From positions 23,474-87,473 of IMG/VR virus record IMGVR_UViG_3300013104_000019: DNA of 64,000 nucleotides; one strand, given 5' to 3'. The notes under the pieces are model-generated. The model saw only the letters and a list, made by a program, of their open reading frames with translations, had not been told where the DNA came from and made no database searches. Positions 7,010-56,642 of the stretch are shown in pieces. Each line of letters begins with the position of its first letter. Position 1 is the stretch's first letter. This DNA comes from a virus. Lineage: Duplodnaviria; Heunggongvirae; Uroviricota; Caudoviricetes. The translations under genes and the position numbers were made by a program.

Positions 7010-7138
7010 TCCAACAAGGGGGTTCCGAAAGGAACCCCTGATATGCTGTTAAGTGGTAGAACTTGGTATGTGTTTTTAATATGCCAAGGCATGGTTTGTA
7101 GCTGTATGTTCGAAGTGCAACCAAAGGAAAGACAAGAA

Positions 7139-7707: not shown

Positions 7708-7740
7708 GCAGAGAGGAGTCTTCGGACTCCTCTCTATGAC
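7708..7740 (+). terminator. intrinsic terminator
   Basis: agagaggagtcTTCGgactcctctct. Confidence 0.65.
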
Positions 7741-10257: not shown

Positions 10258-10474
10258 ACTCATTCAAGCCGAATTGCAAGTCGATGGCCGTGAAGGCATG
10301 CGGTGTTACTGTGTGTCGCTTCGCTGGAGCAGCGGCGTGAGCCATTCCATGGTGATCTTTGAGACCGAGTTTCCCAAAAAGGCGAAACAGATTCAAGACA
10401 TCATGGATGCAACAAAAGACATGACGGTGTCGCAGAGGTTGAAGTACATCGGAGAACGAATCAATAACGCATAA
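10250..10474 (+). CDS. small hypothetical protein (74 aa)
   Basis: ATG overlapping the upstream stop (MVELIQAELQ). Confidence 0.45.
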   Translation: MVELIQAELQVDGREGMRCYCVSLRWSSGVSHSMVIFETEFPKKAKQIQDIMDATKDMTVSQRLKYIGERINNA

Positions 10475-17552: not shown

Positions 17553-17963
17553 ATGCATGTACCTGATTACGTCATTCTGGATCTCAGTCAATCTTTGCCC
17601 CAAATGACTGAGGCTTTGCATCGTTCTTACGAACATCTGCCGGATATCTCTTCCGGTATGGTGGAAGAAGAAATCGAAGATTCACTGCTGAAGATCTTCC
17701 AGTGTCTGGAGCAGCGCGACATGGCCGGGGAAGCACTCAAGGATCTGTGCGTATCGCAATGCCAGCACGACCTCGAATTCGATCAAGGGCAGTACCGCTT
17801 TGCAGAGACGATGCATGCGATTGGCACAGAGGCACTGTTCCAGTTTCATCAACTGGGAATGTACTACGGAGGAGAATTCCTTCCATTCTTTTACAAAGAA
17901 AGGCTAGGCGGCCATGCAATCATTTTACAGCGTGTGGGGCACAGGGGCGAAGACGATCTCTGA
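17553..17963 (+). CDS. hypothetical protein
   Basis: 136-aa ORF after terminator 17503-17533. Confidence 0.45.
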   Translation: MHVPDYVILDLSQSLPQMTEALHRSYEHLPDISSGMVEEEIEDSLLKIFQCLEQRDMAGEALKDLCVSQCQHDLEFDQGQYRFAETMHAIGTEALFQFHQLGMYYGGEFLPFFYKERLGGHAIILQRVGHRGEDDL

Positions 17964-18366: not shown

Positions 18367-18387
18367 ACCGATTCTAAAACGTTTCGG

Positions 18388-18416
18388 TTATATATAACTT
18401 TCCCGAGCTGGTAACC
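18388..18416 (+). promoter_or_regulatory. promoter-like conserved motif, copy A (TTATATATAACTTTCCCGAGCTGGTAACC)
   Basis: About 26 nt nearly identical to the copy at 50216, ~105 nt upstream of the adhesin-like gene. Confidence 0.45.
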
Positions 18417-31585: not shown

Positions 31586-32497
31586 ATGGGATCGATCCTC
31601 TTTTTGGTGTTTCTGAGCATCATCGCTTTTACCGGGGTGTGTTTCTTGACTGCGCTACTCAAGAAGCGACCTATCGTCGCAATGGGACAGGAGCGCATTC
31701 CCCGCAAGCCGAACTTCTATCTGGCGGGTATCGCAGCAGTAGTGGTCTTCCTCGTTGGCTTGGCGCTTGCCAGCTTCACGCAGGTACGAGCCTCCAATGT
31801 CGGCATCGTGACGCAGTTCGGGGAAGTGATGACCGATACGCTCTCGGAAGGCCCGCACTTCGTCCGTCCGTGGGAAGTCGTGACTTCGGTATTCGTCGGT
31901 CTGGATGTGACCAAGGCGGAAGGCGCGCAAGCTGCCTCGAAGGACTTGCAGACGGTCCACACCGATCTCGTGGCGAACTTCCGTGTCGACCCGCTCAAGG
32001 CGAAAGCACTCTTCGAGAAAGACCCGGCGCTCAATTACGTGGGCAACTATGTGAATCCGGCGATCTTCGAAGTGTTCAAAGCGGTGGTTGCACGCTACAC
32101 GGCTGAAGAACTCGTGACCAAGCGCAATGAAGTCTCGGAAGCTATCGTGACCGCGTTGCGCACCAAGCTGGGCCAGTACGGCTTGATCGTGCAAGACATC
32201 AACATCACGAACTTCAAGTTCAGCAAGGCATTCGACGACGCGATCGAAGCGAAGGTGACGGCAAGCCAGAACGCCGAGAAAGCTTCGCGCGATTTGCAGC
32301 GTATCCAGTTCGAAGCTGAGCAGAAGGTCGCGCAAGCCAAGGGTGAAGCCGAGTCGATTCGAATTCAGTCCGAAGCGATTCAACAAAACGGCGGTGAAGC
32401 CTACTTGCGCATGAAGACCATCGAGCGCTGGAACGGCGCACTGCCGCAGTACGTCGGCGCAGGTAATCCGATGTCGATGTTCAGCCTCAACAAGTAA
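31586..32497 (+). CDS. SPFH/band-7 (prohibitin/HflC-like) membrane protein
   Basis: Two N-terminal TM helices, then ...VGIVTQFGEV...GPHFVRPWEVV...VHTDLVANFRVDP... and a long Ala/Gln/Glu-rich coiled coil, the typical SPFH domain layout. RBS aaaggaaagtaagaaaATG. Confidence 0.8.
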   Translation: MGSILFLVFLSIIAFTGVCFLTALLKKRPIVAMGQERIPRKPNFYLAGIAAVVVFLVGLALASFTQVRASNVGIVTQFGEVMTDTLSEGPHFVRPWEVVTSVFVGLDVTKAEGAQAASKDLQTVHTDLVANFRVDPLKAKALFEKDPALNYVGNYVNPAIFEVFKAVVARYTAEELVTKRNEVSEAIVTALRTKLGQYGLIVQDINITNFKFSKAFDDAIEAKVTASQNAEKASRDLQRIQFEAEQKVAQAKGEAESIRIQSEAIQQNGGEAYLRMKTIERWNGALPQYVGAGNPMSMFSLNK

Positions 32498-34080: not shown

Positions 34081-34104
34081 TTTACATTCGAAGGAAATAG
34101 CATG
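34081..34104 (+). promoter_or_regulatory. TTTACATTCGAAGGAA leader motif, copy 2
   Basis: tttACATTCGAAGGAAatagcATG. Confidence 0.5.
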
Positions 34105-34786: not shown

Positions 34787-35131
34787 ATGAGTGCAGTAAG
34801 CGAAGTAAAGCCGTGGATTGAACCGTGCGTTGTCTTTCTCTGCATGGTTCACGATCTCAACTTTCCCGATCCGCGTGGTCCGGACTTCGGTCGATGGTAT
34901 CTGAGCTTCGGGGAAGATCTGACCATGAAAGATGGCACAGTGGTCGGGTTCGATCGCCGTCTCGAACATGCCATGCCGATGACGCTTGAAGCGGCGAATG
35001 CTCGGCTTGAAGAAATCAAGACAAATCCCGATGCGATGTGTATTCTGACATCGACACCTCCCGATAGGGAACCTCACCCCTATCACTGGGAAATGTTGAT
35101 GTACAGTCATGCAGCTACGATACAGCCGTAA
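34787..35131 (+). CDS. hypothetical protein
   Basis: Trimmed to MSAVSEVK after RBS aaggagagagcgATG. Confidence 0.5.
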   Translation: MSAVSEVKPWIEPCVVFLCMVHDLNFPDPRGPDFGRWYLSFGEDLTMKDGTVVGFDRRLEHAMPMTLEAANARLEEIKTNPDAMCILTSTPPDREPHPYHWEMLMYSHAATIQP

Positions 35132-35159
35132 CAAACTGGACGGAGAAGTAACGGCATAA

Positions 35160-35179
35160 GGGGAGGCTTTCGCCTCCCC
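35160..35179. terminator. bidirectional terminator between convergent genes
   Basis: ggggaggctttcgcctcccc. On the minus strand it is followed by CTTATGCCGT. Confidence 0.65.
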
Positions 35180-35184
35180 GCGCA

Positions 35185-35931
35185 TTAGGAGATCTTGCTG
35201 ATCGTCCAGAAGTCTTCTGCCAGATTGGGGTTCAGCACGTAGTCGAACGGAAGCGTGAAGTAGCCCTTCATACCCCAGCTTTCACCCCAGCTGTTACGAA
35301 CGATGAAGTAGCGATCCTTGCGATCGTACCCTACGATCAGGACAGCGTGACCACCCTGGCATTGTTCGTTTTCAGCCGGCATCGGAACCTCACCGGTCTG
35401 TGCCACGGCATCCGACTCGAAACTGTCGTACACCATGATGCCGAACACGATCGGGAAACCAGACGCGAGTGCATGCAGCAGATCGTCTTCCGTTTGCATC
35501 ACGCGACGGTATTCGATCGCACGATGGTTCAGACCATCGTTGTAGGCTTCCATGGAAGGCTTGAACTTGAACTTCTTGGTGTCGTACGGCCAGAGCGTTT
35601 CATCGCACGCGCCGTACTGGACGAGCGTTTTGATGCCATCACGGATTTGAGCACCGCCGTCTTGCCCGATGTCTCCTTCAAGCATGCGTTCGTTGTAGTA
35701 CACGAACAACCGCGACAGACGAATCGGTTGTTCGCGCTGAGCGTTCTCAGCGTATTCGAGTGCTCCAACGATTGCATGGCCCGTACAGCAGCCAAGATCG
35801 CCTTGGTCTTCAACAGCAGAACAACCGGTACGCAGGTCGACACGATCGGGAATCGTGATCGGTTCGACTGCCTTGTAAATGTGGTCTCGGGAATCGTGCT
35901 TGTCCTTGGCGTGGACATACTTGCGTTTCAT
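35185..35931 (-). CDS. papain-like cysteine peptidase (family C1)
   Basis: QGDLGCCTGHAIVGAL (catalytic-Cys region), CQGGHAVLIVGYD (catalytic His) and NSWGESWGMKGYF (Asn plus the SWG..G.GY signature) occur in the canonical C1 order. This is the only minus-strand gene in ~58 kb. Confidence 0.8.
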   Translation of the reverse strand: MKRKYVHAKDKHDSRDHIYKAVEPITIPDRVDLRTGCSAVEDQGDLGCCTGHAIVGALEYAENAQREQPIRLSRLFVYYNERMLEGDIGQDGGAQIRDGIKTLVQYGACDETLWPYDTKKFKFKPSMEAYNDGLNHRAIEYRRVMQTEDDLLHALASGFPIVFGIMVYDSFESDAVAQTGEVPMPAENEQCQGGHAVLIVGYDRKDRYFIVRNSWGESWGMKGYFTLPFDYVLNPNLAEDFWTISKIS

Positions 35932-35962
35932 GTTTCACCCTTAGTTTTTTGAAGTGGGATAC

Positions 35963-35987
35963 TTCATAAAATTCGAATTATTTTTTA
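35963..35987. promoter_or_regulatory. perfect palindrome AATTCGAATT in divergent intergenic region (candidate operator)
   Basis: ttcataaAATTCGAATTatttttta, between the minus-strand peptidase and the plus-strand gene 36006. Confidence 0.45.
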
Positions 35988-36005
35988 TCTAGAAAGGAGT
36001 CTTTC

Positions 36006-36356
36006 ATGAGCACAATCACGTATGACGATCAGGAAAAGTTCATCGACTGGATGAACATGTCGTGCGCTACGCCCGACATATTTCGCAGCATCCGTAACTG
36101 GGTGGTGCAACACATCCGTGAAAGTATGGTCGAGCATCCGGAGGGTGATCCGGGTGTGTCGTATGTCCTCACGCCGGGCGAGATCGTTCTCTCGGATCAG
36201 TCCAACGCAACGGGCTACGAGTTCGAATTGCTGATCTCGTACAGCCGTACCGACATCAGCCGCAAGACGTGCTACTTGCTCGTCAACAACGAAGGCAAGA
36301 TCGCCAACTTCGTCTACTTCGAGGACGTGCTGTCCATCAAGAAGGAACAAGCGTAA
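36006..36356 (+). CDS. hypothetical protein
   Basis: RBS agaaaggagtctttcATG. Confidence 0.55.
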   Translation: MSTITYDDQEKFIDWMNMSCATPDIFRSIRNWVVQHIRESMVEHPEGDPGVSYVLTPGEIVLSDQSNATGYEFELLISYSRTDISRKTCYLLVNNEGKIANFVYFEDVLSIKKEQA

Positions 36357-38205: not shown

Positions 38206-38281
38206 TACGGGTAAGTAGCACGATTTTATGGGAGACGACTGACCACCGCTCCCATTTTATCCACTTTTCGGGGCTAAGTTA

Positions 38282-55301: not shown

Positions 55302-55326
55302 TTTTATGAAATTCGAATAAATTAGG
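55302..55326 (+). promoter_or_regulatory. second copy of the (T)ATGAAATTCGAATAA motif
   Basis: ttttatgAAATTCGAATAAattagg, upstream of 55342. Confidence 0.45.
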
Positions 55327-55341
55327 ACCAAGGGGTATCAC

Positions 55342-55653
55342 ATGAGCGCCGTTGCTGTGAAGTGGAGTAATGTCGAATTGCATGGCTTCTGGTTCGTCAC
55401 CAACTTCTTGCGGGAAGAAGGACTCGACGACTTCGGAGTAAAGGCGGTCATGGATGACCTCAACATGCAATACGAAAAATACCGGAAAACACAAACCGGT
55501 AGAAACGACTTCGGGCCGGACTTCAAGTTCGACACCGAATATAAGCCGTACATCGGCAGGATTCAGATGATCGATCCGGTCACCAAGCACTGCTTTGGTG
55601 AGACGCACGTCTGTTTCGAAGACAACGGTGGAGTCTCCATTCTGCCGTTCTGA
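55342..55653 (+). CDS. hypothetical protein
   Basis: Preceded by the TATGAAATTCGAATAA palindrome motif; terminator follows. Confidence 0.5.
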   Translation: MSAVAVKWSNVELHGFWFVTNFLREEGLDDFGVKAVMDDLNMQYEKYRKTQTGRNDFGPDFKFDTEYKPYIGRIQMIDPVTKHCFGETHVCFEDNGGVSILPF

Positions 55654-55663
55654 CCAACACGGG

Positions 55664-55695
55664 GCCCGGTGTGAAAATCACCGGGCTTTATGCCC
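55664..55695 (+). terminator. intrinsic terminator with TTTATGCC tail
   Basis: gcccggtgtgaaaatcaccgggc then tttatgccc. Confidence 0.7.
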
Positions 55696-56595: not shown

Positions 56596-56611
56596 GTCGC
56601 ACTGTAGAAAG

Positions 56612-56642
56612 TTTCAGTCACATATAACCTTGTCGATATTGG
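56612..56642 (+). promoter_or_regulatory. related motif C (TTTCAGTCACATATAACCTTGTCGATATTGG)
   Basis: Shares the CATATAACCTT core with A and B, and TTTCAGTCACATAT with D. Confidence 0.4.

Follow-up and report, generated by a model that had tools for sequence, protein, structure and literature searches.

A lone antisense papain-like peptidase gene in a phiKZ-like jumbo phage and its predicted expression signals

How does a phage express a protease gene that runs against the direction of every gene around it, and what might such a gene be for? The question is raised by a 64,000-nucleotide stretch of tailed-phage DNA (positions 23,474 to 87,473 of IMG/VR record IMGVR_UViG_3300013104_000019; hereafter the window), in which a papain-like peptidase gene occupies the minus strand at 35185..35931, within a block of small genes on the plus strand. 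An initial annotation regarded the gene as a moron or effector with its own repressor, which would bind a palindrome in the divergent promoter region. The account that we favor, and consider probable, is that the peptidase gene is a self-contained single-gene transcription unit, antisense within a co-directional small-gene block, that encodes a predicted active protease. In this account, the phage's own RNA polymerase would start at the G of TATGAAGT (position 35965, minus strand), with an A-rich block further upstream, and the resulting 34-nt leader would open with a short stem-loop. The open reading frame (ORF) would yield a soluble, cytoplasmic, xylellain-type C1A cysteine endopeptidase, predicted to be active, and transcription would stop at a hairpin followed by TTATGCCGT, 5 nt past the stop codon. 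The antisense orientation, together with a private promoter and terminator, would insulate the peptidase from read-through of the surrounding block. Judged by comparison among related loci, the conserved control elements appear to be the A-rich block, TATGAAGT, the leader stem-loop and the terminator, and the palindrome does not appear among them.

The identity of the gene product is clear. The 248-residue protein (28.2 kDa, pI 5.2) matches Pfam family PF00112, Peptidase_C1, with an E-value of 1.7e-22 and 81.1 bits (curated cutoff 20.7), and the PHROG family phrog_16701, annotated 'peptidase', with an E-value of 3e-22. In the PDB, its best sequence match is to xylellain from Xylella fastidiosa (3OIS), with E 3.6e-56 over residues 4-246; the cathepsins are far weaker matches (about 1e-10). 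The papain-like assignment in the initial annotation is therefore borne out by both the Pfam and the 3OIS matches. The catalytic set also aligns as expected for the family: Gln43, Cys49, His195 and Asn213, the last with Ser214 and Trp215, are invariant in homologue alignments of 27 and 35 sequences, and Gln43, Cys49, His195 and Asn213 align with their counterparts in xylellain and cathepsin S. An AlphaFold2 (AF2) model of the protein (mean predicted local distance difference test, pLDDT, 91.6) has the two-lobed papain fold, and a Foldseek search with this model returned 3OIS first (TM-score 0.90, E 2e-26), with cathepsins K, L and S next.

The phage enzyme and xylellain thus share the papain fold, the Gln/Cys/His/Asn set and a similar size, with 39% identity in the structural alignment, and the phage enzyme has in common with xylellain and other short prokaryotic C1A peptidases a conserved N-terminal D-x-RD-x-x-Y segment and the lack of both an I29 prodomain and a signal peptide. 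It differs from xylellain in being phage-encoded and in having an N-terminus about 28 residues shorter. There is no I29-type prodomain, the alignment to 3OIS beginning at residue 4, and with only five cysteines the protein lacks the papain disulphide set. It is single-domain by Pfam. The initial annotation saw no obvious secretion signal, and we likewise find neither a signal peptide nor a transmembrane segment (maximum 19-residue hydropathy 1.51). With a hydrophilic N-terminus and no hydrophobic segment, the enzyme is presumably cytoplasmic. The product of 35185..35931 is, in short, a prodomain-less, signal-less short C1A peptidase of the xylellain type.

Enzymes of this kind have been seen in viruses before. 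Kordis and Turk reported that short xylellain-type C1A peptidases reached Mimiviridae and tailed phages horizontally (PMC10380794), and phage acquisition of such a gene is thus already in the literature. How rare papain-like peptidases are in phages, as the initial annotation had described them, depends on where one looks. Among isolate phages the description fits, with homologues in 21 of 50,697 records, 15 of these being Lak phages; among metagenomic viral contigs it does not, since at least 522 IMG/VR stretches encode relatives of the peptidase. The latter range from 24 to 68% GC, and giant-virus metagenome-assembled genomes (MAGs) are among them.

Several features place the genome in which the gene resides. 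The window encodes a peptidase S80 prohead protease of the phiKZ gp175 type, a thymidylate synthase, a DHH phosphoesterase and an SNF2-type helicase, as well as a 964-residue virion protein whose relatives, at about 30% identity, all come from jumbo phages of 270-370 kb. IMG/VR contig 3300048915_000145 (244,615 bp; L006 among the homologous loci that we compared) is near-identical to the window throughout the locus and carries the same palindrome. On the strength of the S80 protease, the jumbo-phage virion protein and this near-identical contig, we assign the source to a phiKZ-like jumbo phage of about 245 kb. A nucleotide search of the same 50,697 phage records with the 5.5-kb neighborhood of the gene gave no match. 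The locus belongs to a known kind, a xylellain-type C1A peptidase gene with phiKZ-type expression signals. As a separate observation, a gene for an SPFH/Band 7 protein (31586-32497, plus strand; E 3e-26) has a counterpart, in the same relative position, on the contig with the 78% identical peptidase homologue.

The lone antisense position of the gene withstands a closer census. Under a codon model self-trained on the window, the peptidase ORF scores 58.8, which is typical of the genome, and the sole other minus-strand candidate before the strand switch at about 58.3-59.7 kb is a marginal 56-residue ORF (17682..17852) with a score of 5. Apart from this ORF, the description of the peptidase as the only minus-strand gene in the first 58 kb holds. 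For the related loci we used a gene caller with a model seeded by amino-acid composition and validated on FLC9, L004 and L005. Across all loci it placed opposite-strand genes on both sides of the peptidase in 12, nearly all of them on contigs above 200 kb, and co-directional neighbors in 43, mostly on smaller contigs; the background frequency of the both-sides-antisense layout among other genes was 29/550. The layout was called in this way in L006, L007, L028, L042, L045, L057 and L076, and it appears in the database's own gene calls for L206-L210 (three of the five contigs exceed 200 kb). It is found on the contigs that carry the 90% (L004), 78% and 71% (L005) identical homologues, the P0002 contig included, and also on the 595-kb contig LR756511.

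The closest cultivated counterpart is gp163 of Burkholderia phage FLC9 (BDD79682.1, annotated 'hypothetical protein'), which is 49% identical to the window peptidase and, like it, antisense to more than 20 neighbors: of 24 annotated genes, it alone is on the plus strand. FLC9 also resembles the window in carrying GATCGTATGAAGT upstream of the gene and a hairpin followed by TTATGCCG downstream. It differs in its genome size (322 kb), in having terminator tails on both strands at the junction, and in lacking the palindrome AATTCGAATT.

Within the clade of the window, the peptidase is the best-conserved gene of its neighborhood: compared with its orthologues in L004 and L005 it retains 90% and 71% identity, whereas the syntenic neighbor genes are 26-70% identical. 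One neighbor in the window is faintly homologous even in FLC9-like phages. Since the layout is conserved, the neighbors are syntenic and the peptidase outlasts them in sequence, we conclude that the antisense arrangement is inherited and under purifying selection across the window and FLC9 groups. In L002, L028 and L045 we detected no neighbor homology to the window, in a sample too small for a claim of convergence, and L002 and L028 carry expression signals unlike those of the phiKZ type.

These data bear directly on whether the gene is a moron. The peptidase unit shares with phage morons its own promoter-like and terminator elements and an orientation independent of the surrounding operon, and the gene calls in the window and its relatives agree with the earlier view of a separately insulated unit antisense to its neighbors. 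Unlike morons, however, it is not sporadic, its codon usage is native and its composition not foreign, and it was present at the same place and in the same orientation in all clade members that we fetched, where it is the best-conserved gene. The term moron thus describes the architecture of the unit and not its distribution.

The clearest of the expression signals lies downstream. A GC hairpin at 35160..35179 separates the convergent stop codons of the peptidase and the gene at 34787..35131; on the plus strand it reads GGGGAGGC-TTTC-GCCTCCCC, and on the minus strand, 5 nt past the peptidase stop codon, it reads GGGGAGGC-GAAA-GCCTCCCC and runs directly into TTATGCCGT (35151..35159). In phiKZ, ONT-cappable-seq mapped, at 61 terminators, a consensus of a hairpin followed by YTTATKYYGT (PMC10914365). 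The element at 35151..35179 (minus strand) fits this consensus, with a GC-rich stem-loop followed directly by TTATKYYGT on the transcribed strand, and we predict that it is an intrinsic terminator of the phiKZ type. The same element lies 3' of the peptidase in L004, L005, FLC9, L206, L207, L208 and L209. It had been described as a bidirectional terminator. A hairpin does lie between convergent stops, but the tail is present on the peptidase strand only, the plus strand after the hairpin being GCGCATTAGG.

The same hairpin and tail composite, shared with phiKZ and predicted here from sequence, recurs about 17-22 times in the window. TATG follows a strong hairpin directly at 22 of its 157 sites, compared with about 2-6% for other tetramers. 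In some 17 cases (T)TATGCC(G/C)T comes after a GC hairpin; sites of hairpin plus tail lie on the plus strand at 7042, 7735, 13161, 32542, 38993, 40754, 41555, 44007, 49686, 50289, 54805, 55689 and 58269 and on the minus strand at 10473, 35158 and 58243. Near 58.25 kb, where genes converge, the tail flanks one hairpin on both strands (58243 minus, 58269 plus). We considered whether hairpin plus TATG might mark promoters and rejected the idea: the composite occurs on both sides of convergent junctions (58243/58269 and the FLC9-type junctions), where a promoter would make no sense and the element behaves like a terminator tail, and it matches the phiKZ terminator. A minor consequence concerns gene starts. 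The called starts at 7733-7735, 48543-48545 and 55690-55692 are ATGs inside a terminator tail, (C)TTTATGCC, so that either the true starts lie further downstream or termination and initiation signals overlap.

Upstream of the gene we aligned seven loci, read on the peptidase strand: the window, L004, L005, L208, L206, FLC9 and L057. TATGAAGT is invariant in all seven, which span two clades, and GATCG precedes it in five. The 13-mer GATCGTATGAAGT occurs exactly, and once each, in six loci, always upstream of the peptidase, and it is no general motif in the window. A scan of IMG/VR for GATCGTATGAAGTNT gave 120 matches, nearly all of them random, and the three that were peptidase-linked fell on loci already in the sample. 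Further upstream, the A-rich block ATAAAAAAT (35980..35988, minus strand) belongs to an A-run conserved in every aligned relative, and on the downstream side a Shine-Dalgarno sequence, AAGGGTG (35936..35942, minus strand), lies 4 nt 5' of the ATG, with its AAGG core conserved in the alignment.

The invariant motif has a precedent in phiKZ, where late promoters contain TATG, with its G as +1, and the motif is necessary for transcription by the non-virion RNA polymerase (nvRNAP) (PMC4666361, PMC7618050), which needs every one of its positions (PMC4666361). In the window the shared TATG (35965..35968, minus strand) stands 34 nt upstream of the ORF. By this analogy we predict that the peptidase transcript begins at G35965, and a start there would leave a 34-nt 5' untranslated leader. 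The A-rich block would then lie at about -15 to -23, whereas the middle-promoter element of phiKZ is centered at about -24. In L208 the block is AAAATTAAT, which resembles the phiKZ middle element AAAATTACC, at a different distance from the start. The promoter is thus predicted to be a phiKZ-type nvRNAP promoter of the late or middle class. TTTTATG has six genomic copies, of which four stand upstream of a gene and in its orientation (13186, 38227 and 55305 on the plus strand, 35968 on the minus strand). At 38227 the G opens a hairpin, GGGAG...CTCCC, an arrangement shared with the peptidase promoter.

The hairpin at the peptidase promoter brings us to the leader. An inverted repeat, GAAGT-ATCCC-ACTTC (35951..35965, minus strand), occupies the predicted 5' end of the peptidase mRNA, where it would form a terminal stem-loop. 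In minimum-free-energy folds, nucleotide 1 was paired in all ten leaders and opened a terminal hairpin in eight. The stems differ in sequence between groups: the window group has GAAGT-ATCCC-ACTTC, L206 has GAAGTA-CTTTGT-TACTTC, L209 has GAGCA-CCTC-TGCTC, and FLC9-like phages have GAAGUG...(U/C)GCUUC, with G-U pairs. Loops across the relatives measure 4-9 nt. Because the loops vary and the stems hold wobble pairs, we infer that the repeat functions as an RNA stem-loop rather than as a DNA operator.

What the enzyme does can be approached through its cellular relatives. Four distinct cellular contexts are represented among homologues of about 55% identity (L213-L217), and in three of them a gene of the Inhibitor_I42 (chagasin) family lies directly downstream. 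The window peptidase has no such partner: we found no I42 gene among its neighbors (Pfam, E <= 1) or in the viral loci (phmmer), none in the Pfam annotation of the contigs carrying the 90, 78 and 71% homologues or of L206-L210, and none among the 25 families listed, of 43 matched, across 104 neighbors of viral homologues. Archaeal and bacterial C1A and chagasin operons thus differ from the phage locus in having an adjacent I42 gene. Since the cellular homologues are co-transcribed with their inhibitor and the phage copies are without one, the phage peptidase is most likely controlled by the timing of its transcription. Its role is most likely the proteolysis of host (or phage) proteins inside the cell, at a middle or late stage. 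In two of the L213-L217 contexts the C1A gene is preceded by a PLDc_2 gene, and in Methanoperedens a pair comprising an M4 peptidase and an emfourin inhibitor adjoins the C1A locus, a further case of protease-inhibitor gene pairs.

The genes that immediately flank the phage peptidase give few clues. The divergent neighbor (36006..36356, plus strand) is a 116-residue ORFan with no match in Pfam, PHROG, PADLOC or NCBIfam; it has only three homologues among 5.8 billion proteins, and the AF2 model of it is too poor to use (pLDDT 42.8). The convergent neighbor (34787..35131, plus strand) is a 114-residue ORFan with the ribosome-binding site GGAGAGAG and no family match. More broadly, the ten genes nearest to the peptidase had no matches in Pfam, nor did five of them in PADLOC and NCBIfam, and all are ORFans. 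We asked whether the 116-residue neighbor could be a hidden protease inhibitor. With three homologues, an unusable model and 45% identity in a relative whose peptidase is 90% identical, the idea found no support. On smaller viral contigs, the 104 neighbors of homologues (PHROGs, Pfam) include no recurrent partner; the families represented are RNA ligase, homing endonucleases, RIIA/B and T4-like structural genes.

Several observations weigh against the account of a separately timed, insulated protease unit. The GATCG that is otherwise conserved before TATG has been replaced in the window, and TATG is insufficient on its own in phiKZ (PMC4666361). The promoter class is likewise a prediction for a phage whose RNA polymerase genes lie outside the 64-kb window. 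The energies of the leader hairpins are not significant when taken singly (z -0.4 to -2.3), and since they are unremarkable, we infer the stem-loop and claim no more for it. FLC9-like phages, L207 and L209 have terminator tails on both strands at the junction, and insulation therefore varies between clades. The comparison with I42 operons rests on four cellular contexts, and in the fourth a 90-residue gene with no family assignment takes the place of I42. Finally, distant phage homologues, at 22-31% identity, are found in lysis modules, which points to a different role.

This last point introduces the alternative that survives best, although we think it unlikely. The peptidase might be a late-made lysis enzyme that attacks the envelope once the membrane has been breached, cutting stem peptides, tethers between outer membrane and peptidoglycan, or a surface layer. 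It would then amount to an endolysin of Gram-negative style with a single domain, or to a lysis accessory. Alicyclobacillus phage MMB025 encodes, between its tail fibres and integrase, a 753-residue protein annotated as an endolysin in which Peptidase_C1 is combined with Big_1, an Rv2525c-like glycoside-hydrolase-like domain and PG_binding_1, and in Thermoanaerobacterium phage THSA-485A a C1A gene directly follows a GH25 endolysin gene. In the BFVD, phage C1 proteins are named for peptidoglycan-binding, muramidase and Cu-amine-oxidase-like wall-binding domains. A late-type TATG and the absence of a signal peptide would also suit a holin-dependent enzyme. The MMB025 and THSA-485A proteins share the Peptidase_C1 domain with the window protein; in those phages, however, it is fused or adjacent to wall-binding or glycosidase domains, whereas the window protein is single-domain among ORFan neighbors, and the phages in question have Gram-positive hosts and C1 proteins only 22-31% identical to it. 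The window protein has no wall domain, and by Pfam its neighbors carry no lysis domains, with no match to a holin, endolysin or spanin. Nor do the 104 neighbors of the 45-59% homologues reveal a recurrent lysis partner, with one PHROG endolysin and one each of Amidase_2, Glyco_hydro_108 and Phage_lysozyme2. Moreover, C1A enzymes are protein endopeptidases, and the wall peptidases of the papain clan are normally of the NlpC/P60 or CHAP type.

We return, then, to an intracellular protease that would be expressed at a set time. A stronger version of this reading, which we offer as speculation and consider improbable, is that a broad group of phiKZ-like jumbo phages keep an inhibitor-free cellular protease and deploy it against the host as a timed weapon, fired from a private, insulated promoter of late type. 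The targets would lie in the host cytoplasm or envelope, and the outcome would be degradation of the proteome or of defence proteins, or a protein-directed step of lysis. If true, this would define a new functional class for a conserved jumbo-phage gene and would account for the strictly kept orientation and signals. A specific host or envelope target would make the peptidase a new player in jumbo-phage takeover or lysis; otherwise it would be an ordinary accessory protease. In either case, the comparison gives a name and a model to the 'hypothetical' gp163 of FLC9, a cultivable biocontrol phage, and to its counterparts in many environmental jumbo phages. It suggests that a cellular protease has, in its phage version, been parted from its cognate inhibitor, and that a phiKZ-style grammar of promoters and terminators can be read straight from an uncultured genome of about 245 kb.

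It remains to consider the divergent region itself, 35932..36005, which is 74 nt long and does contain, as first described, a perfect 10-bp palindrome, AATTCGAATT (35970..35979). The palindrome would lie at -5 to -14 of the predicted peptidase promoter and occurs once in the window. Its core, ATTCGAA, is the most enriched 7-mer upstream of genes, present in 9 of 57 upstream regions, with 32 copies against 14.4 expected. The TTCGAA within it is shared with a leader motif, ACATTCGAAGGAA, that has eight matches against 1.8 expected. The leader class tACATTCGAAGGAA sits 5-7 nt, and sometimes about 20 nt, 5' of start codons; its plus-strand members lie at 20334, 34084, 50301, 50768, 51746, 54818 and 56663, with a variant near 53095, and others occur in relatives (L004 at 3737 and 6068, L005 at 8944). 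The motif may be a translation-initiation element or one of RNA-level control. It also implies that the starts called at 20331 and 54782 are wrong, the correct positions being 20354 and 54838. Because ATTCGAA is enriched upstream and the leader motif is real, the link through TTCGAA that the initial annotation had drawn is not meaningless, yet it does not make the palindrome an operator.

One way to give the core a function, which is compatible with the antisense unit described above but which we rate as somewhat less likely than even the lysis role, is that the ATTCGAA at 35971 is a newly gained element, palindromic by accident, serving the plus-strand gene at 36006. In addition to its upstream enrichment, ATTCGAA lies 16-35 nt before the starts at 34102, 50319, 50788, 54838, 55342, 56691 and 36006. 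An element of this kind precedes about ten plus-strand genes and stands before genes in L004 and L005 as well, with the full motif in excess as given above. The copy at 35971, however, lacks the flanking AC...GGAA of the leader class and is not found before the orthologous gene in L004, L005 or L208, and many other copies of ATTCGAA are coding, where they probably represent TTC-GAA codon pairs.

The least tenable proposal is the original one, a divergent promoter of a moron or effector governed by a dedicated repressor on AATTCGAATT, with a second operator at 55302. The palindrome is found only in the window and in the near-identical L006. It is absent from relatives at 90, 71, 65, 59 and 49% protein identity (L004, L005/L007, L206, L208, FLC9, L057 and L076 all lack it), which carry TTAGCGGATC, TAATGCGATC or TAATTCGATC in the corresponding columns; its absence from relatives is an outcome that the initial annotation had itself regarded as refuting. 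Nor is it statistically unusual. The window holds 57 perfect 10-bp palindromes, slightly fewer than the 69 +/- 7.6 of first-order Markov simulations, so that one within any particular 74 nt calls for no special explanation. The supposed second copy of an extended motif at 55302 consists of TATG followed by AAATTCGAAT (55305..55318, plus strand), 34 nt from the ATG at 55342, and the match is limited to the exact 10-mer AAATTCGAAT at 55309. Matches of this kind are at chance level: the 74-nt region has six exact 10-mers in common with the rest of the window, where simulated windows have 3-11, and its best 20-mer match elsewhere, 16/20, is what random sequence gives. A search for relatives of the gene at 55342, in which conservation of the second copy might be seen, returned only the same genome.

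The features that remain in favor of an operator are the position of the palindrome within the predicted promoter, where it separates the A-rich block from TATG, the enrichment of its ATTCGAA core, and the fact that both sites adjoin TTTTATG at the same 34-nt spacing to a start codon. Against these, the motif lies upstream of TATG at one site and downstream at the other, no helix-turn-helix (HTH) or other DNA-binding domain was detected in the genes nearby, all of them ORFans (Pfam for the ten nearest genes; PADLOC and NCBIfam for five), and the peptidase gene is clade-conserved rather than sporadic. With the palindrome missing from relatives and not enriched, we dismiss control by a dedicated repressor as very improbable. 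On the alignment evidence AATTCGAATT is best regarded as a lineage-specific spacer inside the promoter that arose by local change, and as no operator; the palindrome itself is of no importance.

Other features of the window lie away from the peptidase. An Rfam scan of the window returned two tRNAs and nothing else: tRNA-Ser(GCT) at 47615-47707 and tRNA-Asn(GTT) at 47805-47880, both on the plus strand, within 1.5 kb (46994-48542) that hold no confident protein gene. A motif of about 32 nt, TTTCAnTnAyATATAACyTTnnCGAnnTGGnAA, occurs in three intergenic copies on the plus strand (18376-18412, 50203-50239 and 56606-56642), none of them near the peptidase; it resembles a well-conserved promoter class, possibly of the early or virion-RNA-polymerase type as in phiKZ. 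Directly 3' of one of these putative early-type promoters is a gene (18523-20256, plus strand) for a 577-residue protein with YadA_stalk and YadA_anchor domains (E 4.6e-16), the membrane anchor of trimeric autotransporter adhesins, which is unusual in a phage.

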